The notes: generated from the sequence alone by a model not told the origin. 64,000 bases of DNA from an uncultured bacterium (GCA_902799385.1 CADCAK010000001.1:30670-94669); one strand, 5' to 3'; numbered from the stretch's first letter, positions 1-61,109 are shown. Translations and numbers: made by a program.

Positions 1-8
1 GGTGTGAT

Positions 9-1235
9 GTGTTTCATTTGACCAAGGGTGGTGATTTTTGGAAAAAGATTGAGAAGCAGATACGTGAATGTACATGTAAATTCTTACCGGTAATGACAAG
101 GGTCTCAAACAGTCGTGAAGGGGTTATGCAGGAGATTGCAGTAGCAAAGAGTGTGGGCAAGAGTCTAAATGACAACGATTTCATCATTCCTCTTCGGATT
201 GATCCAAATTTGGCATTTGGCGATTTTGATCCACGATTAATTACTTGTAATGGGGTTGATTTTACGACTTCCTGGGCAGAAGGTTTTGCTGAGCTGATAA
301 AAAATCTCAATGAACTTAAATGCCCGAAAAATGGAGATATGTCTGATGGTGCTGCAATCTATGAACGTACGATACTTGGAAAATTTAGTACTGTAGAGCG
401 TGAAGAAGTTTTTGACTCGAATTGGTTTTTGATGACAAATCTTCCTTTGACGATAAACTTTTGTCCTCTAAAAGGCGATGGGAAAATGGGCGAATGGGAT
501 TTTCCTGTGTTGCAGTACAAGAATCATTTTGTCTCGTTTGTAGATAGAGATGGGATGCCATCAGAAATATGTCAATTGCTGGTTGCTGATGTGACCCCGA
601 TTAAGTTCAACATCAAAGATTTCTTGAGGGCAAATAAAGATTGTGAGTTTATAAAATACGGATCATTTAAATGGTTGGTTATTGGACTTCTTGCAAAGGT
701 CTTTGATCTGAGCTTGCGAAATCAGTTCGGCGTCAGTACCAAGAAGATGTCGAATAGGCAAATGGCCTTTTTCTACCAAACAGGTGTTTTGGAAAAGAAC
801 AAAAAGGACCGAATAGCATTAGTTGGAAAACATAAAAGCTTGAAATGGCATTTTGCAGTTTCAGGGAATGTTAGACTGTTTCCCGCCCCTATGATTCAAT
901 TCAAGACGCATGTATTATTTTCAAAAAATGGATTTGATGTTAATCTTGATGACCATACTTCTCATGTCGCGAGACGGTCACTTGGTAAACGATGGTGGAA
1001 CAAAGAGTGGCATTCTAGATTAATGGCATTTGTGTCTACTTTGGTTAACTCACCTGATGGAGTAATAATGCTACAAGAAGGGGTTCAATTGCCTGTTGCG
1101 TTAAACTCCAAGCCTGTTCAATTTAAATCCAGAGTTGCATATGATGAGCCAGGGTCAGAGGCCAACTTGGAAGATGCCCTCATTGATGATGTGGATGATG
1201 AGTTAATGACAACGGAATCTGAGGAGGATGATTAA
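9..1235 (+). CDS. 5'-truncated gene; C-terminal end of a TIR-like domain followed by an APAZ-like domain (partner of short pAgo; SPARTA-type TIR-APAZ)
   Basis: ORF runs off the window start. N-terminal visible part (KFLPVMTRVSNSREGVMQEIAVAK..FIIPLRID) resembles the distal helices/strands of a TIR domain, followed by ~350 aa. It overlaps by 8 nt and is translationally coupled to a MID-PIWI short Argonaute gene, the canonical SPARTA arrangement. Confidence 0.5.
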   Translation: MFHLTKGGDFWKKIEKQIRECTCKFLPVMTRVSNSREGVMQEIAVAKSVGKSLNDNDFIIPLRIDPNLAFGDFDPRLITCNGVDFTTSWAEGFAELIKNLNELKCPKNGDMSDGAAIYERTILGKFSTVEREEVFDSNWFLMTNLPLTINFCPLKGDGKMGEWDFPVLQYKNHFVSFVDRDGMPSEICQLLVADVTPIKFNIKDFLRANKDCEFIKYGSFKWLVIGLLAKVFDLSLRNQFGVSTKKMSNRQMAFFYQTGVLEKNKKDRIALVGKHKSLKWHFAVSGNVRLFPAPMIQFKTHVLFSKNGFDVNLDDHTSHVARRSLGKRWWNKEWHSRLMAFVSTLVNSPDGVIMLQEGVQLPVALNSKPVQFKSRVAYDEPGSEANLEDALIDDVDDELMTTESEEDD

Positions 1236-2769
1236 TATGTTATCACTTCCGATTGAGTACATTGAAGAGCCAAAGATTGTCTTTGGGCATGGACAGCGAA
1301 TGTGTGATCCGCGTGACGGATTGTCCTTCTTCGGTCCGATAGAGAATGGTCCGCTTGAGATAAGAAGCGGTGTCGTTGGTTCTAGCAATGCCTTAAGAAT
1401 ATTCAAGTCATATATTGAGAGAATTCGTAGGCCAGTTTATAATGCAAATACGATAACGAGGCCATTTTTCCCAGGTTTTGAATCTGTATTCAATTGTAAA
1501 TGGAATACAAACACGATTTTGTTTAAAGAAGTTACCAAAGAAAGTGTGATGGCCGCTTTGGCTCAGCAAAATAGGAACATTCGGACATATGATGCGGTAA
1601 CGCTTTTCTTGAACCCGATTCTTAGGGCGGGGGATGAAGATTCCAGTGTTAATATGTGGTTTGTTATTGTTCCAGATGAGATATATCAATACTGCCGCCC
1701 AAAATCAGCAGCGCCAAACGAATTAGAGCTTCGTAAACCGTTGCTGACTAAACGAGAAGCCAGTAAATTCGTGCCGGAGAATTGGCTTTTCGCTGAAATG
1801 CGGAAAGAGGATGAGTTGAAGCAGCTTGAGCAAAAAAAGTATTTGTATGACGCCCAATTCCATGATCAGTTTAAGGCACGATTGTTAGAGCGGCAAATAC
1901 CTACGCAAATTATACGCGAAAGCACGTTGGATTGGCAGAACTATGTGAATTCAAAGGGAAAGCCAATCAGAAACTATTCTGCAATTGAAGGTCATCTGGC
2001 TTGGACGTTATCCACGACTGTATATTACAAGGCAGGTGGTAAGCCTTGGCAGCTTTCAGATGTGAGACCAGGTGTGTGCTATCTAGGCCTTGTATATAAG
2101 AAATATGAGTATTCGGCCAACGAGCGTTATGCATGCTGCGCGGCACAGATGTTTTTAAATAATGGCGACGGCACTATTTTTAAGGGTGAGCTTGGCCCAT
2201 GGTACAATCCTAAATCTGGGGAATTTCATCTGCAGACGAAAGCGGCTAGGTCATTATTGCAAAAAGCGGTTGAGTCATATCGTGAAACGACTGGGAATTA
2301 TCCCAAAGAATTATTTATACATGCGCGAACCCATTTCAACAACGAAGAATGGTCGGCATTTTTGGACGTCGTTCCCACAGGGACAAGAATCGTTGGCATT
2401 ACCATAGACCCGAAACCGATATTAAAGTTATATAGGTTGGATAGTCGATATCCAATTATGCGAGGGATGTTACTTAAGCATGATGAGAGGCGTGCGTTGT
2501 TATGGACGAAGGGGTTTGTTCCAAGAATCCAAACCGCATTGGGCTTGGAAACACCGTCGCCATTAGATATTCGAATTGACAAGGGAGATGCCGATATCGA
2601 TGTAGTTGTCCGAGATATACTTGCATTAACGAAATTGAATTATAATGCTTGTTTGTATGGTGATGGTTTGCCTGTGACTTTGCGTTTTGCCGATAAGATT
2701 GGGAATATCCTCACGGCAACGGCGGAGCAAACCACTTGCCCTCCCTTGTCATTCAAATTTTACATCTAA
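1228..2769 (+). CDS. short prokaryotic Argonaute (MID + catalytically inactive PIWI)
   Basis: 513 aa. MID-like nucleotide pocket region (..TVYYKAGGKPWQL..). PIWI C-terminus (..GDGLPVTLRFADKIGNILTA) resembles pAgo C-terminal anchoring motifs. No obvious DEDX tetrad. Start overlaps the upstream APAZ gene stop. Confidence 0.6.
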   Translation: MINMLSLPIEYIEEPKIVFGHGQRMCDPRDGLSFFGPIENGPLEIRSGVVGSSNALRIFKSYIERIRRPVYNANTITRPFFPGFESVFNCKWNTNTILFKEVTKESVMAALAQQNRNIRTYDAVTLFLNPILRAGDEDSSVNMWFVIVPDEIYQYCRPKSAAPNELELRKPLLTKREASKFVPENWLFAEMRKEDELKQLEQKKYLYDAQFHDQFKARLLERQIPTQIIRESTLDWQNYVNSKGKPIRNYSAIEGHLAWTLSTTVYYKAGGKPWQLSDVRPGVCYLGLVYKKYEYSANERYACCAAQMFLNNGDGTIFKGELGPWYNPKSGEFHLQTKAARSLLQKAVESYRETTGNYPKELFIHARTHFNNEEWSAFLDVVPTGTRIVGITIDPKPILKLYRLDSRYPIMRGMLLKHDERRALLWTKGFVPRIQTALGLETPSPLDIRIDKGDADIDVVVRDILALTKLNYNACLYGDGLPVTLRFADKIGNILTATAEQTTCPPLSFKFYI

Positions 2770-2778
2770 GGTGCTGCC

Positions 2779-4035
2779 ATGATGAATAGCTCATATAGGA
2801 TGACTGAAGTTGGGCTTCTCCCTGAGGATTGGGATGCAAAGCGGTTTTCAGAGTGCTTCACTCTGGTTCGGAATAACACTTATGCTCGTGAGTGCCTGAC
2901 CGATCATCCCGGTTCGGTGGCGAATGTCCATTATGGAGACGTGCTGATCAAGTACGGAGCCGTTCTTGACTTCGCGAAGAATGCTGTGCCTTACCTTAAG
3001 TCCGATGTGAAACCGAATAAGGATATGCTGAGAGATGGGGATCTGGTCTTTGCCGATACGGCGGAGGACGAGGCGGTTGGTAAGGCTGTTGAGGTACAGG
3101 GGTTGAAGTCTCGCATGGCGGTTGCGGGATTACATACTGTCGCAAGCCGCCCTCATGATGGTTTGTTTGCGCAACGGTATCTTGGCTATTACATCAATTC
3201 TGCAGCTTACCACAACCAGTTGCTGCCTTTGATCACTGGCACGAAAGTTTCATCCGTTTCTAGGGCAGGTTTTCTGGCAACATACGTGGCCATACCGCCA
3301 AAGAGTGAGCAGCGGCGGATAGCGGGGGCGTTGTCGGATGTCGATGAGTTGATTTCGGCGTTGGGGAAACTCATTGAGAAAAAGCGCAACATCAAGACCG
3401 GCGCGATGCAAGAACTGCTCACCGGCAAAACCCGCCTCCCCGGCTTCGGTGGCAAGTGGGTGGAGAAGAGGTTGGGTGATTGGGGGATGCTTATTCGAGA
3501 AACAGAGAATCCTCTGGAGTTCCCTGATAAACTTTTTGTTGAATATAGTATGCCCGCTTTTGATGCGGGGAAGACACCACAAATAGTGATTGGCAAAAGC
3601 ATGTTAAGTAGTCGCACAAAGATACATGGTGAGGTTCTTTTATTCAACAAGCTAAATGTTCGACAGCGACGAATTTGGCATGTTGAATTATGCCCTGATA
3701 ATGCGATTTGCTCATCGGAGTTTCTACCTTACTATTCTGACACCATCGACCTTCGGCTGCTAGCTTATGCGCTTGACACAGAACAAAGTACTAAACATTT
3801 TATTGATGTGTCTAAAGGCACATCAAACAGCCAAAAACGCATATCTCCGCAAGAGTTTGAAGATTTTAGAGTGATGTTGCCCCCCACTCTCCCCGAGCAG
3901 CGCGCGATTGCGGCGGTGCTAACAGACATCGACGCGGAGATCGCGGCGCTTGAGGCCGACCGTGCGAAATACGAGCGCATCAAATCCGGCATGATGCAGG
4001 AACTGTTGACGGGCAAGACGAGATTGAAGCCATGA
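2779..4035 (+). CDS. hsdS: type I restriction-modification specificity subunit HsdS
   Basis: Two target-recognition halves, each ending in the conserved HsdS linker EQRRIA..L..D..I..L....K.(A)MQELLTGKTRL (present twice). Confidence 0.9.
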   Translation: MMNSSYRMTEVGLLPEDWDAKRFSECFTLVRNNTYARECLTDHPGSVANVHYGDVLIKYGAVLDFAKNAVPYLKSDVKPNKDMLRDGDLVFADTAEDEAVGKAVEVQGLKSRMAVAGLHTVASRPHDGLFAQRYLGYYINSAAYHNQLLPLITGTKVSSVSRAGFLATYVAIPPKSEQRRIAGALSDVDELISALGKLIEKKRNIKTGAMQELLTGKTRLPGFGGKWVEKRLGDWGMLIRETENPLEFPDKLFVEYSMPAFDAGKTPQIVIGKSMLSSRTKIHGEVLLFNKLNVRQRRIWHVELCPDNAICSSEFLPYYSDTIDLRLLAYALDTEQSTKHFIDVSKGTSNSQKRISPQEFEDFRVMLPPTLPEQRAIAAVLTDIDAEIAALEADRAKYERIKSGMMQELLTGKTRLKP

Positions 4036-5327
4036 TTGATGTGCAAAATAGCGAAGTGAGGCAGGAGGTGAAGCACCACATGGGGCGGCGGTGCTTCAAC
4101 TGGGATTATTCCTCACGCTGCATCTACATGATCACGACCACTCTTGCTGACAGGTCGCGGCCTGTTTTGGGGCAGGTTGTCGGCGAGGGCGAGGAATGGC
4201 GGGTCGAGCCGAGCGAGATTGGGCTGATTGTCGAGCAATGCTGGCGCGAGATTCCGCGGCAGTGGCCGGGGGTTGAGATAATCGAGAGCCAGCTGATGCC
4301 AGAGCACTTCCACGGCATTATCTTTGTGAAAGAGCAGCAGACGAAAAAGCTTGGCAATATCATCGGGAGCTTCAAGTCGAAAAGCACGAGCCGCGCAGGG
4401 GTGGTGGGGTTGTGGGCGCCTGGGTATGTTGACTTGATTCTCTTTCGCGCGGGGCAGCTTGAGAAGATGATCGCCTATATCCGCGATAACCCGCGGCGGC
4501 TTGGCATAAAGTTGACACACCCTGAGCTTTTCAAGGTAGCGCGAGATATTGAGATAGACTTGGGCACATACGCCCAAGCGCAGAACCGCGCGCGCCCAAG
4601 CGTAGGACATGCAAGTGGCGAAGCGCAGAACCGCCCGCGTCAAAGCGCAGAACCTAGCGTCGGTGTTATTCCCTCTTGGCGCGGCCCGTCTAAGGGCCAT
4701 TTTATGGCGATTGGCAGCCACTTTCTTTTGGCGCGGCCGATTATTTGCCAGATTCAATGCTCGCGCTCTTTCTTCGCCTACAAGCGCCGCCGGTTGCCGG
4801 GCGGTTGGCAAATCTGCCGCGATTCCGCCGGCAAGCCGATTGTTGAGAAATCAACGCCTGAATTCGAGGAAAAGGCGACCGCCGCCATGCGCGCGGCGGC
4901 GCAGGGCGCGGTATTGCTGAGCCCATGCATCAGCCATGGCGAGCGCGAGATCGCCCGCCGAGCCTTTGAGTCAGGGCACCGCGTGATAACATTGCAGAAC
5001 AAAGGCTTTTCGCCGCTCTACAAACCGGGCGGCAAGCTCTTCGAGACGTGCGCAGCGGGCAACTTGTTGATGCTCGCTCCGATTGGCTGGCCGTATGTGC
5101 CGGGCGAGAAAGCGATGACGCGCCATGAGGCGCAGGTCTTAAATCGCATTGCCCAGCTCATAGCCGATGACGGCGCGGTTGAAATCGACTACAAAGGCGT
5201 TGTGCTGAGCGGCATCGACGAGGCGGTTGCGCAAGCAGTGGCGGGGGTGGACTTCGCCGCACGCGGCGAGGAACTTGGGCGCACGCGCCCAAGCGCAGGA
5301 CAGAACCGCGCACGCGGCGAAATCTAG
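4032..5327 (+). CDS. RayT/IS200-like Y1 (HUH) transposase-domain protein with ~265-aa C-terminal extension
   Basis: N-terminal 165 aa match the COG1943/Y1_Tnp pattern: HuH motif (MPEHFHGIIFV) and catalytic Tyr region (LWAPGYVDLILF...IAYIRDNP). Start overlaps the hsdS stop (ATGA). The C-terminal region is non-repetitive and protein-like but unassigned; a DprA/SLOG-like Rossmann domain is possible but speculative. Confidence 0.55.
   Translation: MIDVQNSEVRQEVKHHMGRRCFNWDYSSRCIYMITTTLADRSRPVLGQVVGEGEEWRVEPSEIGLIVEQCWREIPRQWPGVEIIESQLMPEHFHGIIFVKEQQTKKLGNIIGSFKSKSTSRAGVVGLWAPGYVDLILFRAGQLEKMIAYIRDNPRRLGIKLTHPELFKVARDIEIDLGTYAQAQNRARPSVGHASGEAQNRPRQSAEPSVGVIPSWRGPSKGHFMAIGSHFLLARPIICQIQCSRSFFAYKRRRLPGGWQICRDSAGKPIVEKSTPEFEEKATAAMRAAAQGAVLLSPCISHGEREIARRAFESGHRVITLQNKGFSPLYKPGGKLFETCAAGNLLMLAPIGWPYVPGEKAMTRHEAQVLNRIAQLIADDGAVEIDYKGVVLSGIDEAVAQAVAGVDFAARGEELGRTRPSAGQNRARGEI
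4571..4659. repeat. REP-like GC-rich imperfect repeats (consensus CGCCCAAGCGCAGAACCGCGC), several copies
   Basis: Copies at 4571-4593, 4594-4607 (partial), 4618-4639 and 4641-4659, inside the 3' half of the RayT-like ORF. Confidence 0.6.
5286..5316. repeat. additional copy of the REP-like CGCCCAAGCGCAG(GAC)AGAACCGCGC repeat just upstream of hsdR
   Basis: Same motif as the 4571-4659 repeats. Confidence 0.55.
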
Positions 5328-5346
5328 GAAGGAAGGATCTAGGGAT

Positions 5347-8300
5347 ATGGAAAACAATAAGGTTGAAGGCGAGGTTTTGCGTCCGAGCGCGAGCGCTGGG
5401 GTTGCCCCCGAGCGAGCGGTTCAAGATCGCATCATTGAGCTTCTGAGAACAAAGCTTGGCTATGAGTATCTTGGCAATTTGTCGGAGCGCGAGAACACCT
5501 GTCTCGATAGGCAGGCGCTGAAGGAGTTTCTTGTCGGCAAGCAGAAGCTCGAGCCTGCATACGCCGACCGTGCAATAGCCGAGCTCGGGAAGCGCATGGC
5601 ATGCCCGAGTCAGGCCGACCTCTATAGCGTAAACAAAGAAGTGTATCTGACGCTCAGATACCCGATGCCGGTCGCCACCGAGCCGGGCAAGCCGATGAAA
5701 CAGGTTTATTTCATCGACTGGCAGCATCCGCTCGAAAACAACTTCTCCATAGCCGAGGAAGTGACGGTAAGACGGCAGATCGCGGCAAACGGCCATCGCC
5801 GGCCTGATGTCGTGATCTGGGTCAATGGCATTGCCCTTTGCGTGATCGAGCTAAAGAAGGCGAATGTGAGCGTGGCCGAGGGAATTCGCCAGAACTACCG
5901 CAATCAGCAAGAGGGGGAGATACCGGCGTTTTTTGCCGCGGCGCAGCTCTTGATGGCGGGCAATGAATCGGAAGGGCTCAAGTATGCGACTACGCTTACG
6001 CCCGAGAAGTACTGGTTGAAGTGGAAAGAGCCGTGTGGCAATCCGTGCGCAGCGCCGAGGTGGGGAAAGTCGGAGATAAAGCCGCTTGTCGATCGTCTGT
6101 TTGCGCAGATGCTCGACAAGGAGCGGTTGCTCGCCTTTATACACGATGGCGTTGTGTTTGACGGTGGCGTTAAGAAGGTGATGCGGCCCGCGCAGTTTTT
6201 CGCGCTGGAGGCGGCGAAGCCGCGTATCATGCGCAAGGAGTCGGGCATCATCTGGCATTCGCAGGGCTCGGGCAAGTCGCTTACGATGGTGTGGCTCGCG
6301 CAGTGGATCAAGGAGCATCGGTCTGATGCGCGGGTGGTGATAATCACCGACCGCGACGAACTCGACAAGCAGATCACAAACGGCTTCAAGGAGGCCGGCG
6401 AGAAGCCATATCGCGCGACAAGCGGCGCCGACTTGATAGCAACATTGAATGGGTCTCGCGAGCGGCTGATCACAACTTTGATTCACAAATTTGGCGCGAA
6501 CGGGCCAAAGGAGAAGCTTGATGCCCGAGAGCGCAGACTGCGGGGCGAAAGGTCGGTTGCGGTTTACCTGAAGGAACTTGCCGACAAGTTGCCGCCAGGT
6601 TTCAAGGCGAAGGGCGATATCTTTGTTTTCGTCGACGAGTGCCATCGTACGCAAGGCGGCGTGATGAATCTTGCCATGAAGAAGATCATGGGCCCGGACG
6701 TGATGCTGATCGGCTTTACGGGGACGCCGCTTCTTAAGAGCGAGAAAGGCGCGCTTACGAGCTATGCCAATTTTGGGCCGTTCATCCATACCTACAAATT
6801 CGACGAGGCGGTAGAAGATGGCGTCGTGCTTGATCTGCGCTACGAGGCGCGCGACATCGAGCAGAACCTTGCCGAAGACGTGACATTTGACTCAATCTTC
6901 GAGCGCAAAACCAAGAACCTTCTTCCCGCCAAGAAGGAAGAGTTGAAGAAGCGATGGGCGAGGATGCAGAATCTCTTTTCGGCGAAAGAGCGCGTACAGC
7001 GCATCGTCACCGACATCTGCATGGACATGGGGATCAAGCCCGCGCTGCGCGAAGGGTGGGGCAATGCAATGCTGGTTTGCGAGTCGGTTTACCAGGCCTA
7101 TCGTTTCTGGGCGATGTTCAGCGACGTGCTCTCGCCGCTCAAGGACAAATGCGCCGTTGTCACAAGCTACGGCGGCGACGAGCCCGGTCTTTCCGAGGCG
7201 TTCACCGGCGAGCAGCTTACGGAAGCCGAGTACAAGCACAGGATGAATCTTGCCATGCGCGGCGACAAGACACCAGAGGATTTCGAGGAGTGGGCGAAGA
7301 AGGAGTTTGTCGAACACCCGGCGAAGATGAAGCTGCTTATCGTGGTCGACAAGCTGCTGACCGGCTTTGACGCGCCGCCCGCAACCTATCTCTACATCGA
7401 CAAGAAGATGGAAGACCACAATCTCTTCCAGGCGATTTGCCGCGTCAACAGGCTCAACGGCGAAAAGAAACGCTATGGCTACATAATCGACTACAAGCAT
7501 CTTTTCGAAAGCATAAGGGGCGCGGTCGAAGACTACACCAACGGCGCGTTCAAGAACTTCGAAAAAGAAGATGTCGAGGGGCTCCTCAAGGGCCGGCTTG
7601 AAGAAGGTCGCAAGGCGCTTGAAGCGGCTCTTGAACGGTGCGATATTCTTTCGGAACCGGTACTGCCGCCGAAGGGTCTCGACGAATATTGCGATTACTT
7701 CCTCGCCAATGACGGGGATTTGCAGCAGCGTGAAGATTTCTACCAGGCTTGCATCGCCGCGGTAAGGGCTTGGAGCGACATCGCGCAGGAAACTGACGAG
7801 GCCGGCTACTCCCCCGCCGAGGCGGCTGCGCTAAAGGAGAAGGTGCGCAACTACGACATGCTGCGCGAGGCGATCATGAAGCGAGCCGGCGATTTCGTGG
7901 ACCTCAAGCTCTACGATGCCGAGATGCGATCGCTTCTCGACAATTTCGTCACGGCCAAGCATGCGTTGAAACTCGCCGACCTCGAGGAGCTTTCGTTTCT
8001 CGATCTGATAAAAATCGACAAAGACAACGGAGGTTCGGTTGATTCCGACGTTGAGTCCGATGTCGGCGGCGAGAGAGGTGTTGCCGAAACGCTTGTGGCT
8101 AACGTCAGACGCTACATCTTCAGAAAGAAAGAGACCAATCCAGCCGAGTACCGCAAGTTCTCGGAACGCATCAACAGGCTTCTCGAAGACTACCGCAAGG
8201 AGAAGATCGAATACGGAAAGCTACTCGCGGAAATCGCCAAGATGGGCAAAGAACTGAAAGGCGATTCGACTGCTGCCGATCCGCGGTTAGACACAGAGGC

Positions 8301-8544
8301 CAAGCGAAGCCTCTGCGACAACCTGGGCGGCGATGCTGACCTTGCGCTCAAGGTCTTCGAGGCCGTTGGCGCAAGCGCCAAGCCCGGCTTTCGGAGGAAT
8401 GCCATACGGCGCAGGAAAGTCGAGATGGCCATCGAGGACGCCTTGCAGGGAACTGATTTCAACCCGCTTGCCGTCTACCAGATAGTGGAACACCAAAGTG
8501 AGTTCGACGCAGACTCCTACATGAGCGATGACCCTTGGATGTAG
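5347..8544 (+). CDS. hsdR: type I restriction enzyme R subunit HsdR
   Basis: N-terminal PD-(D/E)xK nuclease region (VIELKKANVSVAEGIRQNYRNQ), SF2 helicase motif I (GSGKSLTMVWLAQ) and DEAH-like motif II (VFVDECHRTQ). Start chosen at M41 of the track ORF, with an AGGAAGGA RBS. Confidence 0.9.
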   Translation: MENNKVEGEVLRPSASAGVAPERAVQDRIIELLRTKLGYEYLGNLSERENTCLDRQALKEFLVGKQKLEPAYADRAIAELGKRMACPSQADLYSVNKEVYLTLRYPMPVATEPGKPMKQVYFIDWQHPLENNFSIAEEVTVRRQIAANGHRRPDVVIWVNGIALCVIELKKANVSVAEGIRQNYRNQQEGEIPAFFAAAQLLMAGNESEGLKYATTLTPEKYWLKWKEPCGNPCAAPRWGKSEIKPLVDRLFAQMLDKERLLAFIHDGVVFDGGVKKVMRPAQFFALEAAKPRIMRKESGIIWHSQGSGKSLTMVWLAQWIKEHRSDARVVIITDRDELDKQITNGFKEAGEKPYRATSGADLIATLNGSRERLITTLIHKFGANGPKEKLDARERRLRGERSVAVYLKELADKLPPGFKAKGDIFVFVDECHRTQGGVMNLAMKKIMGPDVMLIGFTGTPLLKSEKGALTSYANFGPFIHTYKFDEAVEDGVVLDLRYEARDIEQNLAEDVTFDSIFERKTKNLLPAKKEELKKRWARMQNLFSAKERVQRIVTDICMDMGIKPALREGWGNAMLVCESVYQAYRFWAMFSDVLSPLKDKCAVVTSYGGDEPGLSEAFTGEQLTEAEYKHRMNLAMRGDKTPEDFEEWAKKEFVEHPAKMKLLIVVDKLLTGFDAPPATYLYIDKKMEDHNLFQAICRVNRLNGEKKRYGYIIDYKHLFESIRGAVEDYTNGAFKNFEKEDVEGLLKGRLEEGRKALEAALERCDILSEPVLPPKGLDEYCDYFLANDGDLQQREDFYQACIAAVRAWSDIAQETDEAGYSPAEAAALKEKVRNYDMLREAIMKRAGDFVDLKLYDAEMRSLLDNFVTAKHALKLADLEELSFLDLIKIDKDNGGSVDSDVESDVGGERGVAETLVANVRRYIFRKKETNPAEYRKFSERINRLLEDYRKEKIEYGKLLAEIAKMGKELKGDSTAADPRLDTEAKRSLCDNLGGDADLALKVFEAVGASAKPGFRRNAIRRRKVEMAIEDALQGTDFNPLAVYQIVEHQSEFDADSYMSDDPWM

Positions 8545-8548
8545 TGTC

Positions 8549-9256
8549 ATGACTATTGCCGGAATACAGATTGAAGTCGAGCGAAAGAAGATCAAGCACA
8601 CGCATCTTGCCGTCTATCCGCCGGATGCTAGGGTACATGTCTCTGCGCCAGATGATCTTTCCGACCGCGATTTGAGAAGTTTTCTTGCATCCAAGATTGG
8701 CTGGATACGCGACCAGCGGAAGACTGTTCTTTGCCAGCCTCGCCAGGCGCGCCGGGAGTATGTGAGCGGAGAGAGCATTTATTGCCTTGGCCGCAGGTAT
8801 AAACTATTGGTTGTCGTGGAAGATCGTTATGCGACGGAAAAGATGACGTGGGGCGGCAACAAGCTGTCGTTGTACGTGCGGGAGGGCGCTTCACGAGGGC
8901 ATAAGGAGAGGATCGTCGAATCATGGCAGAAGGCGATGTTGGGTGAGTCTCTTGCGGGCAAGATGAAAGGATGGTGCAGAAAGTTGAAGCTTGCTCTTCC
9001 AGAAATCGAAATAAGAAAGATGAAGACCCGGTGGGCGAGTTGTCTTCAGAAACGCGGCAAGATCGTTTTCAACGCCGCGCTTGGAAGAGTGCCCGCAAGA
9101 TGCATTGAGTATGTGGTCGTACATGAGCTGACGCATTTCGAGGTGTCGAACCACTCCAGAGCGTTTGTAGAGCTTATGGACAGGCGATTGCCGCGCTGGA
9201 GGATCTTGCGGAAAGAACTTAATGATTTTATCGCCATGCCGATGGAGGAGGTATAA
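8549..9256 (+). CDS. DUF45/YgjP-like (M48/WLM-like) zinc metallo-hydrolase, commonly linked to hsdR
   Basis: C-terminal HExxH-containing motif IEYVVVHELTHFEVSNHSRAFVELM and the WASC motif (KTRWASC). Located immediately downstream of hsdR. Confidence 0.8.
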   Translation: MTIAGIQIEVERKKIKHTHLAVYPPDARVHVSAPDDLSDRDLRSFLASKIGWIRDQRKTVLCQPRQARREYVSGESIYCLGRRYKLLVVVEDRYATEKMTWGGNKLSLYVREGASRGHKERIVESWQKAMLGESLAGKMKGWCRKLKLALPEIEIRKMKTRWASCLQKRGKIVFNAALGRVPARCIEYVVVHELTHFEVSNHSRAFVELMDRRLPRWRILRKELNDFIAMPMEEV

Positions 9257-9257
9257 T

Positions 9258-10019
9258 ATGGCCAAGAAGCGGGAAAGCAATTTCAAGAAGAATGGAGTTT
9301 CAAGCGAACTCCTGCCGCGCGAGCAGATGGAGCGTGCGGCGAGTCCGCACGACCTAAAGGACGAGGCCGTTCTTGCGATACTGCTCAAGACAGGTGCGCC
9401 TGGCTGTGACGTCTTGGAACTCGCAAGGCGGCTCATCCGGGCGTTTGGTTGCATTCAAGACCTTGTAACCGCCGATTGGCGTACGCTGGTCGCAAAGATA
9501 TCCGACTACAACAAAAAGAACCCAGAAGCTCCCATCAAGGGTATTGGAAAAGTCAAGGCGCTTGAGCTGGCTGCAGCGTTTGAACTCGGGTATCGCCGTC
9601 TTCGCGTTAAGCCTGACGATCTCAAGAAGATGCGTGTCGCAACCGCAGACGACGCATACGAAGTGTTCAAGTTCATTGCCCAGGAGGGCGACGTTCTGGA
9701 GAACTTCTGGGTATTGCCTTTGACGGCGAAGCGAGTTCCGATCTGTGAGCCGATCAGAATTGCACGAGGGCAAGCCAACACGTCATATGTGATGCCGCGA
9801 GATGTCTTCCGAGAGGCCATCAAATGGGATGCCCACTGCATAATGGTGGCGCACAATCATCCAAGCGGAGACCACACTCCGTCAGAAGGCGACATCGAAA
9901 CGACGCGGCAGCTGATGGCGATGTCCAAAGACCTCGGCATTCCGCTTCTTGATCACTTGGTTGTCTCGTCCTTAGGCTATTCCTCGATACGAGACTACAT
10001 AAGGCGAGGCTCAGTCTAG
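9258..10019 (+). CDS. radC: RadC-like JAB/MPN domain protein
   Basis: JAMM motif HNHPSGDHTPSEGDIETTRQL....GIPLLDHLVV and an HhH-like N-terminus. GGAGGAGG RBS. Start at M13 of the track ORF. Confidence 0.85.
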   Translation: MAKKRESNFKKNGVSSELLPREQMERAASPHDLKDEAVLAILLKTGAPGCDVLELARRLIRAFGCIQDLVTADWRTLVAKISDYNKKNPEAPIKGIGKVKALELAAAFELGYRRLRVKPDDLKKMRVATADDAYEVFKFIAQEGDVLENFWVLPLTAKRVPICEPIRIARGQANTSYVMPRDVFREAIKWDAHCIMVAHNHPSGDHTPSEGDIETTRQLMAMSKDLGIPLLDHLVVSSLGYSSIRDYIRRGSV

Positions 10020-10046
10020 TCTCAACAGGGAGTCAACAGGGTCAGA

Positions 10047-10091
10047 TTTGCTGCGGAGTCATCTGTCTGACCCTGTTGGTTCCGGTACTTC
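10047..10091 (+). terminator. inverted repeat (13-bp stem CAACAGGGTCAGA / TCTGACCCTGTTG, 19-nt loop) downstream of radC
   Basis: Perfect 13-bp inverted repeat right after the radC stop. No strong U-tract, so it may be a terminator or a processing hairpin. Confidence 0.3.
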
Positions 10092-10225
10092 TCCCAGAGC
10101 CGGCGGATCCGAACAGCCTGCCGCCAGAACCCGACGACGGCGACATGCCGTTCTGAGATTTGTGCAAAGCTGTAAAGCATTGTCAGATTTTGCCGCGGGG
10201 AGCGAGTAAGGGGTAGAAAGGGATA

Positions 10226-10768
10226 TTGCCTGTAGTGAAATACTGTGCGCTGGCTTTGGTTTTGCTGACGGTGGGTGGATGCGCCTACCGCGATGCGCTT
10301 GTGCTTGAAAACGGCGAGAAAGTCGACTCGCTCTATTACCACGAAAGCCGCATGCCAGATGAGGTGATGGTTGAGATGTGGATCGATTTCAATGCGCGGC
10401 GGTTTCGGTTCAAGTGTGGATTGCATGACGCCATGGGCTGGGAATCCTGCCGGTTTGACGGGATGCGGTTGGATCTTGCCCTTGAAGGGCGTGAGTGGCG
10501 AAGACTCGTACATAATGTCGAACAGGCACATGTCGAGGCCTGGCCGGGAATTGACGCGAGTCGGGCTGCGTCGGCAGTGGATACGACGGCATATTACCTG
10601 CGGCTGCGAGCCGGCGACAAGACCATAGAGAGATTTGCCGTTGGCGCTGCGCCAAAGAAATTCGAGGGAATCCAGTCCGTAATCCAGTTCGCGCTGTCGC
10701 ACAAAGACCTTTACATGTTGCCAGGGGACGTGCCCAGCGGCGGGCATTTGCCCGCGGGCGCAGAATAA
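10226..10768 (+). CDS. hypothetical lipoprotein
   Basis: N-terminal lipobox-like signal ..KYCALALVLLTVGGC. TTG start at 10226 or in-frame GTG at 10235, preceded by AAGGGG. The long antisense ORF over the same region is presumed spurious (high GC). Confidence 0.5.
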   Translation: MPVVKYCALALVLLTVGGCAYRDALVLENGEKVDSLYYHESRMPDEVMVEMWIDFNARRFRFKCGLHDAMGWESCRFDGMRLDLALEGREWRRLVHNVEQAHVEAWPGIDASRAASAVDTTAYYLRLRAGDKTIERFAVGAAPKKFEGIQSVIQFALSHKDLYMLPGDVPSGGHLPAGAE

Positions 10769-11249
10769 AACATGGCGCAAAGTTTTCCAAAAAGTTGGCG
10801 CACGCCCTTGCGCCCCCGGTGCAAATATGAGACAATATATCTGCTCTCCGGAATTGAACTCTGTGGCGACAGAGGTACGAACGGGGGCCTTGAAAGCCGT
10901 TGGGTTGAAACCGATGGAGCCCTGCTGAGAACGGATCGAAAAGCCTGAAGGGTGGGCGGACGGTCCGGGAGGGGGCGCTGATGTCGGGAACCGCGGCGGC
11001 CGATTTGGAACGTGATGGAGGAGGCTTCCTCCGCGGGTTTGAGCGCGATAAGCGCAGCCTAAGCGTCGTCGGCATCTGGCGAGGCATCGCCTATTCCAAA
11101 ATGCTGCGACGACGTGTGTCGTCGGTGAAACGGCAACAAGTCCTGCACAGGCGGGAGAAAGGAATAGGTCATGAGTTATGACATAAGGATTAGGCGGAAG
11201 ACGGGAGGGCCGGTCGAATTCCGGCAGCCGCATTGCATAATCCTAAGCG

Positions 11250-11492
11250 TTGCAATCCGTTTACAAGCAGTCGTACGAACTACAACGACCGATTGTTGCC
11301 GATATGTGCGCAAACGCCGATAACGTCAGCGAAGATGAATTGGCGCATTGTTTTGATCGCGTGCTGGACATTTCATATACAGACTACGGCATGAGGCTTT
11401 TCAACAAATTGTGCAGGGCTTTCAAAGCAAGATATCCAGTTTGTGTGACGGATTATATAAAAATCCAAAAGGAGATTTATGGGGACGATTAA
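11250..11492 (+). CDS. small hypothetical protein (80 aa from TTG; 62 aa if from ATG 11304)
   Basis: ORF with protein-like composition directly upstream of the AlbA_2 gene. No recognisable domain. Confidence 0.3.
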   Translation: MQSVYKQSYELQRPIVADMCANADNVSEDELAHCFDRVLDISYTDYGMRLFNKLCRAFKARYPVCVTDYIKIQKEIYGDD

Positions 11493-11631
11493 GAATGTCT
11501 TGTGCCCACTATCTGAAGGTCGGCAGATTGGCGGCGCGAGACAAGGCGTATCATCCGCGGTCGTAGGTCGATTGCCTGTCCGTGCGAGGATGGAATGTGG
11601 CATAATTTCGACAAAAGCGCAAGGAGTGGGG

Positions 11632-13134
11632 ATGAAGCGAGACGAAAACCAGACGGTCGAGTACAAGGAGTCCTGGCACGAGAAGTACCTGGAGTGGATC
11701 TGCGGCTACGCGAACGCCAAGGGCGGGACGCTGTACATCGGCATAGAGGACGGAACCAAGAAGCCCGTCGGCGTCAGGAATCCCAACAAGCTGATGGAGG
11801 ACATCCCCAACTCCATACGCAACACGATGGGCATCGTGGCCGACGTCGCTTTGCTCAAGAAGCAGGGCAAGGATGTTATACGTATTAAGGTTGCGGCAAG
11901 CGCCTTCCCCGTCAGCTATCAGGGACGCTTCCACTATCGGACGGGATCGGTCAAGATGCTGCTGACAGGCCCGGCCCTTACGCAGTTCCTGATGGAGAAG
12001 TCAGGACAGCAATGGGACTGCATATCATGCTTCGGAGGACATCGTGCGTCCGATTTCACTTTTATTGCGCTCAAGAACCTCTATGAAAAGGCGAGTGGGT
12101 CGAAATTGACAAAGGAGGACATGCTTTCCTTTGGCCTTGTCACAGAGGCGGGCGTCATGACCAATACTGGCGCGCTGCTGGCCGACGAGTCGCCGATTCG
12201 ACATTCCCGCGTTTTCTGCACACGCTGGAACGGACTCGACATGACGGCAGGCGTTATGGATGCTGCCGACGACCAGGAATATAGTGGCGGACTTCTACAG
12301 TTGCTCAAATATGCAGAGGACTTTGTCCGCCTCCACTCCCGCCGCGCGTGGCACAAGCGTCCGACAGACCGCGTGAACTTCCGCGAGTATCCCGAACGCT
12401 CTGTTCAGGAGATGCTCATCAACGGACTCGTTCACCGCGACTACCTTGAGACAGGTAGCGAAGTCCATGTTGATATCTTCGACGATCGAATGGAAATAAC
12501 CTCCCCAGGCGGTATGCCGGGCGACCGCAAGGTTCAGGAGTATCCGAACATTCGGCGGATTCCGTCGCGTCGCCGCAATAAGTGCCTTGCGGATATGTTT
12601 GAACGGCTCGATCTCATGGAACGCAAGGGCAGCGGGTTCAAGAAGCTCAACGAGGACTACGAGAAACTGTCGGTCAACCTTGGGAAACGCATGCCCGTCC
12701 TTGAGTCCGAGAGTGACTACTTTCGCGTTACACTGCCGAATCTTCTCTATGGATTCACAGACGAACAGCTCGTCGCAGCCGTCGACAACTCGTCATACGG
12801 AGTGCCGAAGAGTGAGACGCTATCACTCGCGACCCACCATGATACCCACCATGATGCCCACCATGATACCCACCATGATGTGTTGCCGCTTAAACCAAAT
12901 GAAACCAAGCTTTTGAAGGTGCTGTCATTACAAAGAGAACTCAGCGCCACCGACTTGCGTAAGGCTATGAAACTTAGGAATGCGCCGGACTTTAGAGAGC
13001 GCTATCTCCGGCCGCTTTCTCGCGACGGATACATTGAGTTCACATTGCCGAACGCTAAGAAATCCAAACTTCAGAAGTATCGGCTGACGGACAAAGGACG
13101 TGCCGCGCTGTCGGCAAATACGTATAAGTCATAA
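11632..13134 (+). CDS. AlbA_2 (Schlafen-like) + HATPase_c_4 ATP-binding transcriptional regulator-like protein
   Basis: N-terminal AlbA_2 motif ESWHEKYLEWICGYANAKGGTLYIGIEDGTKKPVGV. C-terminal HATPase_c_4 region LINGLVHRDY..GSEVHVDIFDDRMEITSPGG. C-terminal HTH. AAGGAG RBS before ATG 11632. Confidence 0.8.
   Translation: MKRDENQTVEYKESWHEKYLEWICGYANAKGGTLYIGIEDGTKKPVGVRNPNKLMEDIPNSIRNTMGIVADVALLKKQGKDVIRIKVAASAFPVSYQGRFHYRTGSVKMLLTGPALTQFLMEKSGQQWDCISCFGGHRASDFTFIALKNLYEKASGSKLTKEDMLSFGLVTEAGVMTNTGALLADESPIRHSRVFCTRWNGLDMTAGVMDAADDQEYSGGLLQLLKYAEDFVRLHSRRAWHKRPTDRVNFREYPERSVQEMLINGLVHRDYLETGSEVHVDIFDDRMEITSPGGMPGDRKVQEYPNIRRIPSRRRNKCLADMFERLDLMERKGSGFKKLNEDYEKLSVNLGKRMPVLESESDYFRVTLPNLLYGFTDEQLVAAVDNSSYGVPKSETLSLATHHDTHHDAHHDTHHDVLPLKPNETKLLKVLSLQRELSATDLRKAMKLRNAPDFRERYLRPLSRDGYIEFTLPNAKKSKLQKYRLTDKGRAALSANTYKS
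12833..12880 (+). repeat. 4 x 12-bp tandem repeat (CCCACCATGATR) encoding a His-rich HHDTHHDAHHDTHHD tract inside the AlbA_2 gene
   Basis: Direct reading of sequence. In frame, near the C-terminus. Confidence 0.75.
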
Positions 13135-14428: not shown

Positions 14429-15820
14429 TGTAGTTATCAAAAGTGGACTATCGTGGCCTCGTCGGTGTTGTCCTTGGGGTGTTTCCTGTCCGTGAACAGA
14501 ACGACGGGGTATGTGCCGTGCTTCGGGTAGTCCTTGACGATTGAGCGCGAGCCGTCGGTGTGCGAACACAGATAGGCCCGGGACCCGACGGGGGCGTTGA
14601 CCGTAACCTCGTCGAGGCCAATCCTGACTCTTCGACCTTTTCCGACGACAGTCGGCTCGATGACTGACCAGACGTATTCCCACCATGGCTCCGCTGGTTT
14701 GGGCCTAAGCTTGTTCCGGCCATCCCTGACCGCCTTGTCCCACGCCTCCATGCCCGTCATCCCGGTTTCGCGGTTGAGGTCGTGCTCCGAGTTCCACACG
14801 ATGAGAGGCCATATCTCGGAGTTGGCCTTGTCGAGATCTGCAGGGACGCCGATCCTTGCGAAATGGGCGGGAAGCCTGTCTTGCCATATCTGGTGCCGTC
14901 GTTCGATCTTCCCCTTTGACTCTGGGGAGTTTGCGAAGACCAGCGTGACCCCGTAGAACTTAAGCCGAGACGCGAGGCGTGTCAGGTGCCTGCCGTCCTG
15001 GCTCTTGAAGAAGGAAGCCTGGTCGACGTATATCTGCAGCGGCAGCCCGTAGCGCTCGAACGACTCCTTGAGGAAGTCGATGTATGCCGCCAGGTTCTCG
15101 TGGGCGTAGACCTTGCCTCCGACCTGTCTGCGGCTTGCGTCGTCAAGCATGTTCAGCATTGGAAGGCATTCGGATCCTTCCCCGAACCACCTGTACGGTG
15201 TCGCGTCGAGCTGCCACAGCTCGCCGACGTTGAGCCTCTGCCAGCGCCTCGTGTGGCACGTAGGCCTGTCCTTCGGCTTCGGGCGCGAGAGCCCCTGCGA
15301 GATGGCCCACAGCCTGACCTGCGCACGGTCCAGCCTCGCGGCGAGTCCAAGCCTGACGGCCTCGGATGCGGCAAAGGCGAAGGAGGCTGGCGGCCTCGTG
15401 GAAAGGGCCTGGCGGAGGAACGCCTTCAGCTCCTCCGTCCAAGGCGCCTTGTGTGCCCCGCCAGAGCTCGAAGGCATCCAGTCCTCGCCGCGGCGGATGG
15501 CGGAGAGCCACTCCTTGCGGATGGCGAACAGGCGGCTCCGCGAAAGACCGAGTTCGCTGCACGCCTGTTCCGATGTCATCGATCCGGCATTGAACGTTTC
15601 AAGCACATGCCTCAACAGCGGCAGTGCAATTCTCTGGTGTAGTTGCTTGCTCATGATAGCGAGCATGGTACAGGATTTTTGGCCGGAGGGGAAGGGGAGT
15701 GCGCTCGGCCCTTCGGGCCGCCCCTTCGGGGACGCTTCTCCCCTTCCCCTCCGGCCATCCCAGCAATATGCCAAACATCAAAGTAAAGCCTAAAGGCAGA
15801 GTCCTGTTTTGATTTCACCC
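14429..15820 (-). mobile_element. IS481-like insertion sequence (rve DDE transposase) with imperfect terminal inverted repeats
   Basis: Ends GTGTAGTTATCAAAAGTGGACT (14429-14450) and GAGTCCTGTTTTGATTTCACC (15798-15818) are imperfect inverted repeats (about 14/20). A single transposase ORF lies between them. Confidence 0.55.
14437..15774 (-). CDS. DDE transposase (integrase core/rve domain, N-terminal HTH), IS481-like
   Basis: W..D.T(x).... DDASRR...D....SPESKGKIER: D, D and the rve E. N-terminal HTH (TSEQACSELGLSRSRLFAIRKEW). Confidence 0.85.
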   Translation of the reverse strand: MAYCWDGRRGRGEASPKGRPEGPSALPFPSGQKSCTMLAIMSKQLHQRIALPLLRHVLETFNAGSMTSEQACSELGLSRSRLFAIRKEWLSAIRRGEDWMPSSSGGAHKAPWTEELKAFLRQALSTRPPASFAFAASEAVRLGLAARLDRAQVRLWAISQGLSRPKPKDRPTCHTRRWQRLNVGELWQLDATPYRWFGEGSECLPMLNMLDDASRRQVGGKVYAHENLAAYIDFLKESFERYGLPLQIYVDQASFFKSQDGRHLTRLASRLKFYGVTLVFANSPESKGKIERRHQIWQDRLPAHFARIGVPADLDKANSEIWPLIVWNSEHDLNRETGMTGMEAWDKAVRDGRNKLRPKPAEPWWEYVWSVIEPTVVGKGRRVRIGLDEVTVNAPVGSRAYLCSHTDGSRSIVKDYPKHGTYPVVLFTDRKHPKDNTDEATIVHF

Positions 15821-16046: not shown

Positions 16047-17039
16047 ATGAAGAAGATCGAATACATTCCGAAGTTTACGGTTAGCGGCAAGGCGATGCGG
16101 CTCATTATGGAGATTGCCGCCGCATTAGAACGATACAAAATCGTGATGGAGGGGTCTGATGGCGTGCGGCTCAGAAAGCTCAATCACATTCGTACGATTC
16201 GTGGGACGACGGCCATCGAGGGAAACACGCTGACCGAGGAGCAGATCACAGCCGTGCTGGCGGGGAAGCGCGTGGTGGCAACGCGGCGCGAAATTGACGA
16301 AGTGAAAGGTGCCCATCGCGCCTATGCGAAGATTGAGTCGTTCAATGCGTATTCGGTTAAGGATCTCTTAAAGGCGCACGCGTTGATGACGAAGGGGCTT
16401 GTTGAGAAGCCGGGCGAATTCCGCAAGTGTGCCGTGGGGGTGATGAATGGCGCGGGTGAAGTCGTGCATCTTGCTCCGCGTTTTGAACTCGTTCCTGGGC
16501 TGATGGATGATTTGTTTGCGTGGCTTGCCGATTCAGAAGAGCCAGTGCTTATAAAGAGTTGCGTCTTTCACTGGTGCTTCGAGGACATTCATCCATTTCC
16601 AGACGGCAATGGGCGCACTGGACGCCTTTGGCAGACCGTGTTGCTCGGCTCGTGGAATCCGCTCTTTTACGGCGCGCCAATTGAGAACATCGTATGGGCG
16701 CATCAGTCGGAGTATTATGCAGCGATACGGGCGGTTGAAGAGCACGACATGGACATCGCTCCGTTCATTGAGTTCATGCTTGACAAGATTCTTCGGACAC
16801 TGAAGGCCAAGGGTGAAGCGTATGAGGCAGGGGAAGAAAGTAGGGTTAAGAGTAGGGATAAAAGTAGGGATAAGGTGTTGTGCCTTTTGCGCAGGCAGCC
16901 TGATTTGACCCAAGCAGAGCTTGCTAATGCGTTGGGACTGACGGTAAAAGCGATTGAGAAGATCATTCGTCAGTTGAGAGATGCCAATCTCATAAAGCGC
17001 GAGGGCGGCAAGAAATTCGGACGCTGGATTGTGGCGTAG
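16047..17039 (+). CDS. fic: Fic family protein (class II, N-terminal inhibitory helix) with C-terminal HTH
   Basis: Fic motif HPFPDGNGRTGR. Intramolecular inhibitory (S/T)xxxE(G/N) motif TAIEGN near the N-terminus. C-terminal winged-HTH (QAELANALGLTVKAIEKIIRQL). Confidence 0.9.
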   Translation: MKKIEYIPKFTVSGKAMRLIMEIAAALERYKIVMEGSDGVRLRKLNHIRTIRGTTAIEGNTLTEEQITAVLAGKRVVATRREIDEVKGAHRAYAKIESFNAYSVKDLLKAHALMTKGLVEKPGEFRKCAVGVMNGAGEVVHLAPRFELVPGLMDDLFAWLADSEEPVLIKSCVFHWCFEDIHPFPDGNGRTGRLWQTVLLGSWNPLFYGAPIENIVWAHQSEYYAAIRAVEEHDMDIAPFIEFMLDKILRTLKAKGEAYEAGEESRVKSRDKSRDKVLCLLRRQPDLTQAELANALGLTVKAIEKIIRQLRDANLIKREGGKKFGRWIVA

Positions 17040-59147: not shown

Positions 59148-59361
59148 TCATGTATTCTGGAAAGGCCTTTGGTCGGGCTTGGCTGAGTGCATGAGAGGAA
59201 GTGCGCTCTTTTTATGCATGCGAGGCGGTCTCCGCGACTATTTGTGCGCAGAGAGCGAGAGGCCATAACAAGACATGAATAGTGGGTTCCAGGCGTTTGG
59301 ACGCCTTGCCATAATGTTTGTCCTAATTAGCCTTTCGACCGTTGCACATGGAGGCGCGACT

Positions 59362-60252: not shown

Positions 60253-60257
60253 ATGAC

Positions 60258-61103: not shown

Positions 61104-61109
61104 AGAGGG

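Follow-up and report, generated by a model that had tools for sequence, protein, structure and literature searches.

When a type I specificity gene (hsdS) lies directly behind an Argonaute gene and no modification gene (hsdM) is at hand, is the restriction-modification (R-M) system broken, or has its operon admitted a second defence system? The question is raised by a stretch of 64,000 nucleotides from an uncultured bacterium (GCA_902799385.1, CADCAK010000001.1:30670-94669; hereafter the window), in which hsdS follows the two genes of a SPARTA system, i.e. a short prokaryotic Argonaute (pAgo) with its TIR-APAZ partner. An earlier note on this DNA had stated that hsdS comes straight after the pAgo gene and that the window has no hsdM. 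Both statements were borne out, as the two genes are separated by 9 intergenic nt, and a tblastn search of the 64 kb with three HsdM/N6-methyltransferase proteins of related loci found no hsdM (best E-value 0.4). The only methyltransferases in the window are those of a separate DpnII-type system at 59.3-61.9 kb. From the observed gene identities, synteny, composition and recombination breakpoints, we consider it very likely that SPARTA occupies a variable slot between hsdM and hsdS (slot A) of a chromosomal type I R-M operon, that it is of lower-GC origin and is exchanged together with the first target-recognition domain (TRD1) of hsdS, and that the gene between hsdS and hsdR, here called ORF4 (ORF, open reading frame), is a long-standing resident.

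Seven co-oriented and closely spaced genes were identified on the plus strand within window positions 1-10019:

3-1235, + strand: TIR-APAZ gene, 5′-end cut by the window edge, frame read from nt 3; Pfam TIR_2; PADLOC Aga_TIR-PNTD1-PNTD2, E-value 1.6e-86
1237-2769, + strand: short pAgo (MID-PIWI), 510 aa; PADLOC pAgo_I, E-value 1.4e-186; the alternative start ATG 1228 gives 513 aa
2779-4035, + strand: hsdS, intact, mosaic; PADLOC Specificity_I, E-value 1.9e-67, 3-417 of 418 aa
4032-5327, + strand: ORF4 (RayT-like), 431 aa; sub-threshold RayT/Y1 family matches only
5347-8544, + strand: hsdR, intact, 1065 aa; TIGR00348, E-value 9e-142; PADLOC REase_I, E-value 5e-292, 7-1029 of 1034
8528-9256, + strand: ygjP-like metallopeptidase gene; Pfam YgjP-like, E-value 3.7e-54
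9222-10019, + strand: radC-like JAB gene; Pfam RadC, E-value 2.9e-28

In SPARTA systems, a guide RNA bound to target DNA detects the invader, and the TIR domain depletes NAD+. By analogy, the pair in the window would sense invading nucleic acid through guide RNA and target DNA and then deplete NAD+ by its TIR domain. Its assignment to SPARTA is based on a protein with TIR and APAZ regions, a short pAgo (∼500 aa) directly downstream whose only domains are MID and PIWI, and a conserved Glu in the motif GVMQEIAVA, which we take to be the catalytic residue of the TIR NADase. This motif aligns with GVLKEIAVA of 8qlo_A. The first nucleotide of the window corresponds to about nt 107-116 of the TIR-APAZ gene, leaving the N-terminal 35-40 aa outside the window, and the PADLOC alignment spans 37-436 of 443 positions. 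The TIR-APAZ of the window is 95% identical to a 449-aa protein (P0001) that aligns end to end with the TIR-APAZ chains of solved SPARTAs (E-value 6e-98). The pAgo matches PADLOC pAgo_I over 3-493 of 493 positions, and its residues 10-513 align to 5-507 of the solved SPARTA pAgos 8ifk and 8fex (E-values ∼6e-208 to 1e-208). The two genes abut or overlap, depending on the start codon. With the solved SPARTAs (8fex, 8ifk, 8qlo), the window pair thus has in common the same TIR-APAZ and short MID-PIWI pAgo, overlapping co-oriented genes, and strong full-length matches; only the genomic setting differs, as the pair in the window is nested in an R-M operon.

Both R-M genes of the window are intact. 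HsdS has two target-recognition domains split by conserved regions (an alignment resolves it into two variable and three conserved segments), and HsdR contains the Pfam domains HSDR_N, SWI2_SNF2, T1R_D3-like and T1RH-like_C, i.e. an N-terminal nuclease and an SF2 motor. The pAgo, hsdS and hsdR calls reflect strong sequence homology to intact genes and are not due to chance. Between the pAgo stop codon TAA (2767-2769) and the hsdS start codon ATG at 2779, the sequence AAGGTG overlaps the stop; hsdS and ORF4 overlap by 4 nt, and 19 nt separate ORF4 from hsdR, whose ATG start at 5347 is preceded by the ribosome-binding site AGGAAGGA. SPARTA is probably co-transcribed with hsdS and hsdR and acts independently of them. 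Methylation of self DNA and restriction of unmethylated DNA would fall to HsdM, HsdS and HsdR.

The HsdR homologues were from rumen and gut Kiritimatiellia metagenome-assembled genomes (79-97% identity), and searches of plasmid and Escherichia coli collections with the window gave no relevant match; the host is probably a rumen Kiritimatiellia bacterium, with the operon located in its chromosome.

The whereabouts of hsdM were indicated by related loci (numbered L001 onwards). Exact-protein look-up found the 510-aa pAgo (start at ATG 1237) on 14 public contigs; the same look-up with the 513-aa pAgo, HsdS and ORF4 returned no match. In L048-L051, rumen contigs with the identical pAgo, the gene order is N6_Mtase (581 aa), HsdM (762 aa, carrying an HsdM_N and an N6_Mtase domain), RhuM (358 aa), 62 nt of spacer, TIR-APAZ, pAgo, HsdS, an 80-aa remnant of ORF4, HsdR, YgjP and RadC, and the nucleotide identity to the window is 99.4% over positions 1-3419 and 94.7% over the stretch from hsdR to radC. 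In L024-L027, which are 93% identical to the window over the same 3419 nt, the order is HsdM, RhuM fragment, DUF1016/YhcG, SPARTA, HsdS, three cargo genes, ORF4 and HsdR. Accordingly to this comparison of type I components, HsdR and HsdS are present in the window itself, and hsdM is seen upstream of SPARTA only in the relatives, i.e. in every close relative with visible upstream DNA (L048-L051; L024 and L025). Its position upstream of SPARTA in the window is therefore well supported by the relatives, and in slot A SPARTA is almost certainly preceded by rhuM and then hsdM just past the window edge. The prediction that hsdM lies upstream of the SPARTA pair, and that SPARTA hence sits between hsdM and hsdS, is supported by both groups of loci, and the insert is lineage-specific, as a comparison of relatives found the same operon without SPARTA in L001-L003, L005, L042 and L047. 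The simple order hsdM-SPARTA-hsdS did not hold, since hsdM is separated from SPARTA by rhuM as well (with DUF1016/YhcG or a 278-aa ORF in some loci). Directly 5′ of hsdM, a second N6_Mtase gene of ∼580-600 aa was located (L024 1669-3459, L048 3485-5230, L042 1-1165).

The same comparison bears on the idea that hsdS and hsdR are an orphaned, decaying remnant, with hsdM absent or elsewhere and SPARTA merely abutting it. Such a remnant would agree with the lack of hsdM in 64 kb, with a window that starts inside TIR-APAZ and leaves the upstream region out of view, and with the internal deletion of ORF4 in L048-L051, which shows that the operon can erode. We nevertheless consider it highly unlikely, because both hsdS and hsdR have their full length and a complete set of domains, and because hsdM is present in every relative with visible upstream DNA, including loci that are 99.4% identical across the junction. 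An operon that has accommodated SPARTA is thus the preferred reading.

The origin of the SPARTA genes is reflected in their composition. The GC content at third codon positions (GC3) was 0.37 for TIR-APAZ and 0.43 for pAgo, versus 0.71 for ORF4, 0.72 for hsdR and 0.73-0.78 for hsdM of the relatives. Moreover, SPARTA is absent from L001, L002, L003 and L047, whose HsdR is 91-97% identical to that of the window, and is present in L024 at 93% nucleotide identity although ORF4 of L024 is only 65% identical, which amounts to phylogenetic incongruence. These observations support SPARTA as a recent, horizontally acquired foreign insert, which would have come from a lower-GC donor.

The unit that was acquired extends beyond the SPARTA genes, and its limits are best described against the segments of hsdS:

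1-3419, + strand: exchange block of SPARTA, hsdS 5′ conserved region and TRD1; nucleotide identity 99.4% to L048-L051, 99.6% to L052, 93% to L024-L029 and L033
2800-2832, + strand: N-terminal motif of hsdS
to ∼3306, + strand: TRD1
∼3307-3453, + strand: central conserved region
∼3454-3888, + strand: second target-recognition domain (TRD2)
3889-4032, + strand: C-terminal conserved region

High identity extends from TIR-APAZ across the first half of hsdS and ends within the central conserved region (∼3419-3451), and the core genes flanking the block are far more diverged than the block itself. HsdS of the window is a mosaic, with TRD1 of the L024/L048 type, a central region of the L002/L003/L005 type, and a unique TRD2. 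The same SPARTA block, at least 99.4% identical, was present in three or more operon backgrounds. Two types of left junction were found. In the first (L048, L052), homology to SPARTA-free operons stops about 10 nt before the rhuM stop codon. In the second (L024, L033), a 34-codon ORF precedes TIR-APAZ, and since its first 19-20 residues, MKTSKFKMTELGPIPEGWE, equal the conserved HsdS N-terminus, it is a dead hsdS stub. The two junctions imply that what SPARTA replaced was either the main part of an hsdS copy or the junction of rhuM and hsdS. Related operons now very probably exchange SPARTA, in a single block with the hsdS 5′ half and its TRD1, through homologous recombination. The right crossover lies in the conserved central region of hsdS, and the left junction is either the rhuM 3′-end (L048 type) or a point ∼60 nt inside a former copy of hsdS (L024/L033 type); conserved hsdS and rhuM sequences are the sites of this recombination. 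The insertion proposed in the earlier note was upheld in so far as SPARTA is foreign and lineage-specific, but it is no simple landing in a spacer, as the genes move with the 5′ half of hsdS and a stub is left in L024 and L033.

Some points weigh against this reading. The place of the window's own hsdM is deduced from relatives, the window starting inside TIR-APAZ, and the source contig may end inside this gene, where a rearrangement is possible. The two variants of the left junction point to a history more complex than a single event. Scans of the window for sigma-70 promoters and terminators gave counts equal to chance, the consensus being uninformative for this phylum.

Linkage to an R-M operon could also have a functional basis. 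In EcoprrI, the gene of the anticodon nuclease PrrC occupies the slot between hsdS and hsdR, and PrrC is physically regulated by EcoprrI. SPARTA might likewise be restrained or triggered by the R-M complex, for which the 9-nt spacing on a shared strand, the inheritance of SPARTA and TRD1 as one block, and the precedent of PrrC, found almost only as an embedded component of type I R-M (bioRxiv 10.1101/2024.01.29.577857), could be taken as signs. More distant SPARTAs (47% identity), however, were located in other, unrelated islands without type I genes, and the linkage to TRD1 is explained by recombination at the conserved regions of hsdS. Solved and tested SPARTAs also act on their own, and coupling of this kind appears very improbable. 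The distant SPARTAs show that the embedding is specific to this clade, and a general association of SPARTA with type I R-M was rejected on the same grounds; a metagenome scan with pAgo gave 3 loci only, L033 among them. Embedding of an autonomous SPARTA is accordingly retained as the preferred reading.

SPARTA is not the only cargo of this operon family. On the basis of 14 loci including the window, together with L048-L052, the conserved backbone is [N6-MTase]-hsdM-{slot A}-hsdS-{slot B}-ORF4-hsdR-ygjP-radC. Slot A, between hsdM and hsdS, contained RhuM alone, RhuM and a 274-278-aa ORF, a RhuM fragment and DUF1016, or Fic, each with or without SPARTA. Slot B, between hsdS and ORF4, was empty in the window, L005 and L048, and was filled elsewhere by a 297-aa ORF and two KAP NTPases, by a YobI-type ATPase with two or three unannotated ORFs before it (and, in L047, a 307-aa ORF and AbiTii in front of these), or by DUF2806/Abi_alpha and a 288-aa ORF. 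The cargo genes are of low GC3 (0.40-0.51) and lie on the same strand between core genes, and their content varies among homologous operons, which is the pattern of embedded cassettes. Between close relatives, the accessory cassettes in slots A and B differ, and most of them are of the defence type.

Low-GC unannotated ORFs of 274-278, 285, 297, 307 and 399 aa recur in the slots (L002 1989-2825, L047 540-1364, L024 11889-13976, L002 4079-4972, L047 2567-3490), and are candidate defence genes by guilt-by-embedding. At the other end of the operon, ygjP was found 3′ of hsdR in every locus with downstream DNA retrieved, including distant Bacteroidales, Actinomycetota and Acidobacteriota, and may be part of the R-M system rather than a mere neighbour; the radC-like JAB gene follows ygjP only in the Kiritimatiellia-type operons.

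Nesting of defence genes in restriction operons is already known, and the window adds a clear new case. Clusters of type I R-M, BREX and DISARM with embedded defence genes have been published (Payne et al. 2024, bioRxiv 10.1101/2024.01.29.577857), and as in the window, those cassettes lie between core genes on the same strand, with content varying among homologous host systems. The window differs from these cases in that the cargo is SPARTA and the exchanged unit includes half of hsdS; a term search of the main text of that study found no mention of SPARTA as embedded cargo. TgvAB, which interrupts an active type I R-M operon of Vibrio cholerae VPI-2 in an arrangement where the two systems are proposed to be complementary, is similarly a two-gene autonomous defence system inside a type I R-M operon (PMC11411939). 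It belongs, however, to the GmrSD-like type IV restriction systems and was tested experimentally, whereas the pair in the window is of the Argonaute/TIR abortive-infection type and known from sequence. What is new here is that the embedded cargo is SPARTA and that it is physically linked to a half of hsdS that can be exchanged.

The second gene that had been regarded as an insert is ORF4. It shares the slot between hsdS and hsdR with prrC of EcoprrI, and PADLOC, Pfam and NCBIfam scans gave no homology to PrrC. The N-terminal 170 aa of ORF4 form a Y1-HUH domain (RayT/IS200-like), followed by a strongly conserved C-terminal domain of ∼220 aa:

4296-4325, + strand: HUH motif MPEHFHGIIF
4473-4493, + strand: Tyr motif AYIRDNP

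The residues H92 and H94 (HFH) and Y149 were invariant in 21 homologs. Family scores failed both thresholds (NCBIfam REP_Tyr_transpos 32.8 bits against a cut-off of 80; Pfam Y1_Tnp 15.8 against 23), and a sequence search of the PDB gave no match. In Foldseek searches with a predicted model, the top match was 4er8_A, E. coli RayT with a REP (repetitive extragenic palindromic) hairpin (E-value 8.5e-6), followed by TnpA of IS608, ISDra2 and IS200 (E-values 1e-5 to 1e-4), the match covering the N-terminal domain only, where the model pLDDT is 61-86. The full-length AF2 (AlphaFold2) model was poor (pLDDT 53.7), and the model of the C-terminal domain (pLDDT 66.5) had no significant fold match in the PDB (best E-value 0.34), leaving a DprA-like guess for this domain unsupported. 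The family is large, with more than 1700 members in the search.

Such features might suggest an active mobile element of the IS200/IS605 or RayT type inserted between hsdS and hsdR: the HUH and Tyr motifs are intact and invariant, the predicted fold is closest to RayT and TnpA, some homologs are labelled ‘RayT’ or ‘transposase’ in some sources, and one homolog (58% identity) lies outside any R-M locus. Other findings make this very unlikely. The 4-nt overlap with hsdS and the 19-nt gap to hsdR leave no intergenic flanks and no room for transposon ends, and neither insertion sequence (IS) ends nor dispersed REP/REPIN copies were found flanking ORF4. The gene is directly 5′ of hsdR in L001-L005, L021, L042 and L047, down to 66% HsdR identity; its GC3 is host-like; it falls below both curated cut-offs of the family hidden Markov models (HMMs), carries the extra conserved domain, and is present as a single copy in 64 kb. 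In a Paludibacteraceae operon (L008), an ORF4-like gene was located between hsdM and hsdS. ORF4 is missing only in L048-L051, where a ∼930-nt internal deletion (window ∼4245-5172 missing) has kept both ends of the gene and leaves an 80-aa N-terminal remnant (L048 12898-13140), which indicates that ORF4 is ancestral there and dispensable; it appears dispensable for maintenance of the operon as well. The comparisons argue for ORF4 as a long-resident gene of this operon family and not a recent insertion. The lineage-specific RayT-like insertion proposed in the earlier note is thus contradicted, and of its operon as a landing pad for two unrelated insertions, the landing pad and the SPARTA insert stand, but not the RayT-like gene as an insert.

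ORF4 is, moreover, accompanied by a repeat. A GC-rich hairpin unit of 28 nt, CTTNNNCGCACGCGNNNAAG CGCAGRAC, reads CTT-NNN-CGC-AC-GCG-N'N'N'-AAG followed by CGCAG(A/G)AC, bears the tail CGCAGAAC, and is often extended by half-units of 22-24 nt. The copies occur on the coding strand only and in frame:

4559-4653, + strand: hairpin array in the ORF4 linker, in frame
5252-5330, + strand: two further hairpin units at the ORF4 3′-end, lengthening ORF4 by ∼27 aa relative to L001-L003
L001: hairpin sites at 2794-2900 and 3048-3160
L002: hairpin site at 10727
L003: hairpin sites at 9046-9370 and 12352-12430
L004: hairpin sites at 2979 and 4115
L005: hairpin sites at 535, 5598, 7305 and 8465
L006: hairpin sites at 1258, 11206 and 12421

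In the window, the hairpins are confined to ORF4; in the relatives, hsdR (at three or more sites), ygjP and hsdM carry them as well, and their presence and copy number differ. They also occur inside the ORF4 homologs of L042 and of a Victivallales locus that is not R-M (L036). The remaining 54 kb of the window, the flanks of the loci beyond the operon and the low-GC cargo genes yielded no copy, and the exact pattern had 0 matches in viral contigs. No copies lie at the SPARTA junctions, and there is no link to SPARTA insertion. Stem positions 4-6 co-vary (CG, GC, UA), and 93% of cells were paired versus 33-46% with the partner columns slid, the paired fraction being inflated as the copies were partly selected for hairpin formation. 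Folding energies of the arrays as single-stranded DNA were no better than those of shuffled sequences (z −1.7 to +0.2), and the hairpin thus rests on conservation and covariation. Among the homologs, each of the three reading frames of the unit is translated (FAARGEAQN, LGRTRPSAEP, PHAAKRRT), and a protein search for host families with the three translations scored nothing.

The co-occurrence of the hairpin with a RayT-like gene suggests an enzyme-substrate pair. Tentatively, and with considerable doubt, ORF4 may be a domesticated RayT-like single-strand DNA enzyme with the 28-nt hairpin as its substrate, acting in cis to copy or maintain these in-frame, coding-strand hairpins. If true, the operon would contain a local ‘REPtron’, with hairpins in ORF4 and in the adjacent hsdM, hsdR and ygjP. 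That the enzyme and hairpins also promote cassette turnover in slots A and B is a bolder extension and very improbable.

Two known kinds of repeats are comparable. Rickettsia palindromic elements, which Ogata et al. reportedly described in 2000, are said to be in-frame inserts of 100-150 nt, resembling transposable elements of the miniature inverted-repeat kind (MITEs) and found genome-wide. Like the hairpin here, they are short palindromic repeats tolerated in frame inside protein genes, the present unit being read in three frames; the present unit differs in its length of 28 nt, its local occurrence in the DNA seen, and its link to a Y1-HUH gene. In RAYT/REPIN systems, REP hairpins accompany RayT (PMC5581495; PDB 4er8). 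ORF4 shares with these the Y1-HUH fold with HUH and Tyr, and a short GC-rich hairpin with a conserved flanking motif by or inside the gene, but its product has double the length and one further conserved domain, and scores below the family HMM cut-offs. The repeats here are intragenic, in frame and operon-confined in all DNA examined, whereas REPINs are dispersed and extragenic.

Rfam gave no family match within positions 1-12000. Downstream of the operon, the following were identified:

10022-11233, − strand: 403-aa ORF without family match
11479-13134, + strand: 551-aa protein just 3′ of the operon, with Schlafen AlbA_2, HATPase_c_4 and Fic-like_C winged-helix domains and, in PADLOC, a weak resemblance (E-value 1.3e-10) to the PNTD region of proteins associated with Argonaute
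14437-15774, − strand: rve-type integrase
16047-17039, + strand: Fic/DOC-HTH protein
59275-61922, + strand: complete DpnII-type type II R-M system of a D12-class Dam-like methyltransferase, DpnII endonuclease and N6_N4 methyltransferase

The stretch with the 403-aa ORF, the integrase and the Fic/DOC-HTH protein may be the edge of a larger variable island.

For annotators, the locus is a warning that an R-M system is not broken just because its hsdS stands beside a pAgo gene, and it supports guilt-by-embedding as a route to new defence genes. The association of the hairpin with a Y1-HUH gene is its least expected element, and would open a new angle on RayT-like enzymes if the two are functionally linked. 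As the exchange is tied to half of the specificity gene, gain or loss of SPARTA would change the target specificity of the R-M system in the same event, and a type I R-M operon can in this way serve as a shared scaffold for swapping immune modules in a natural population.

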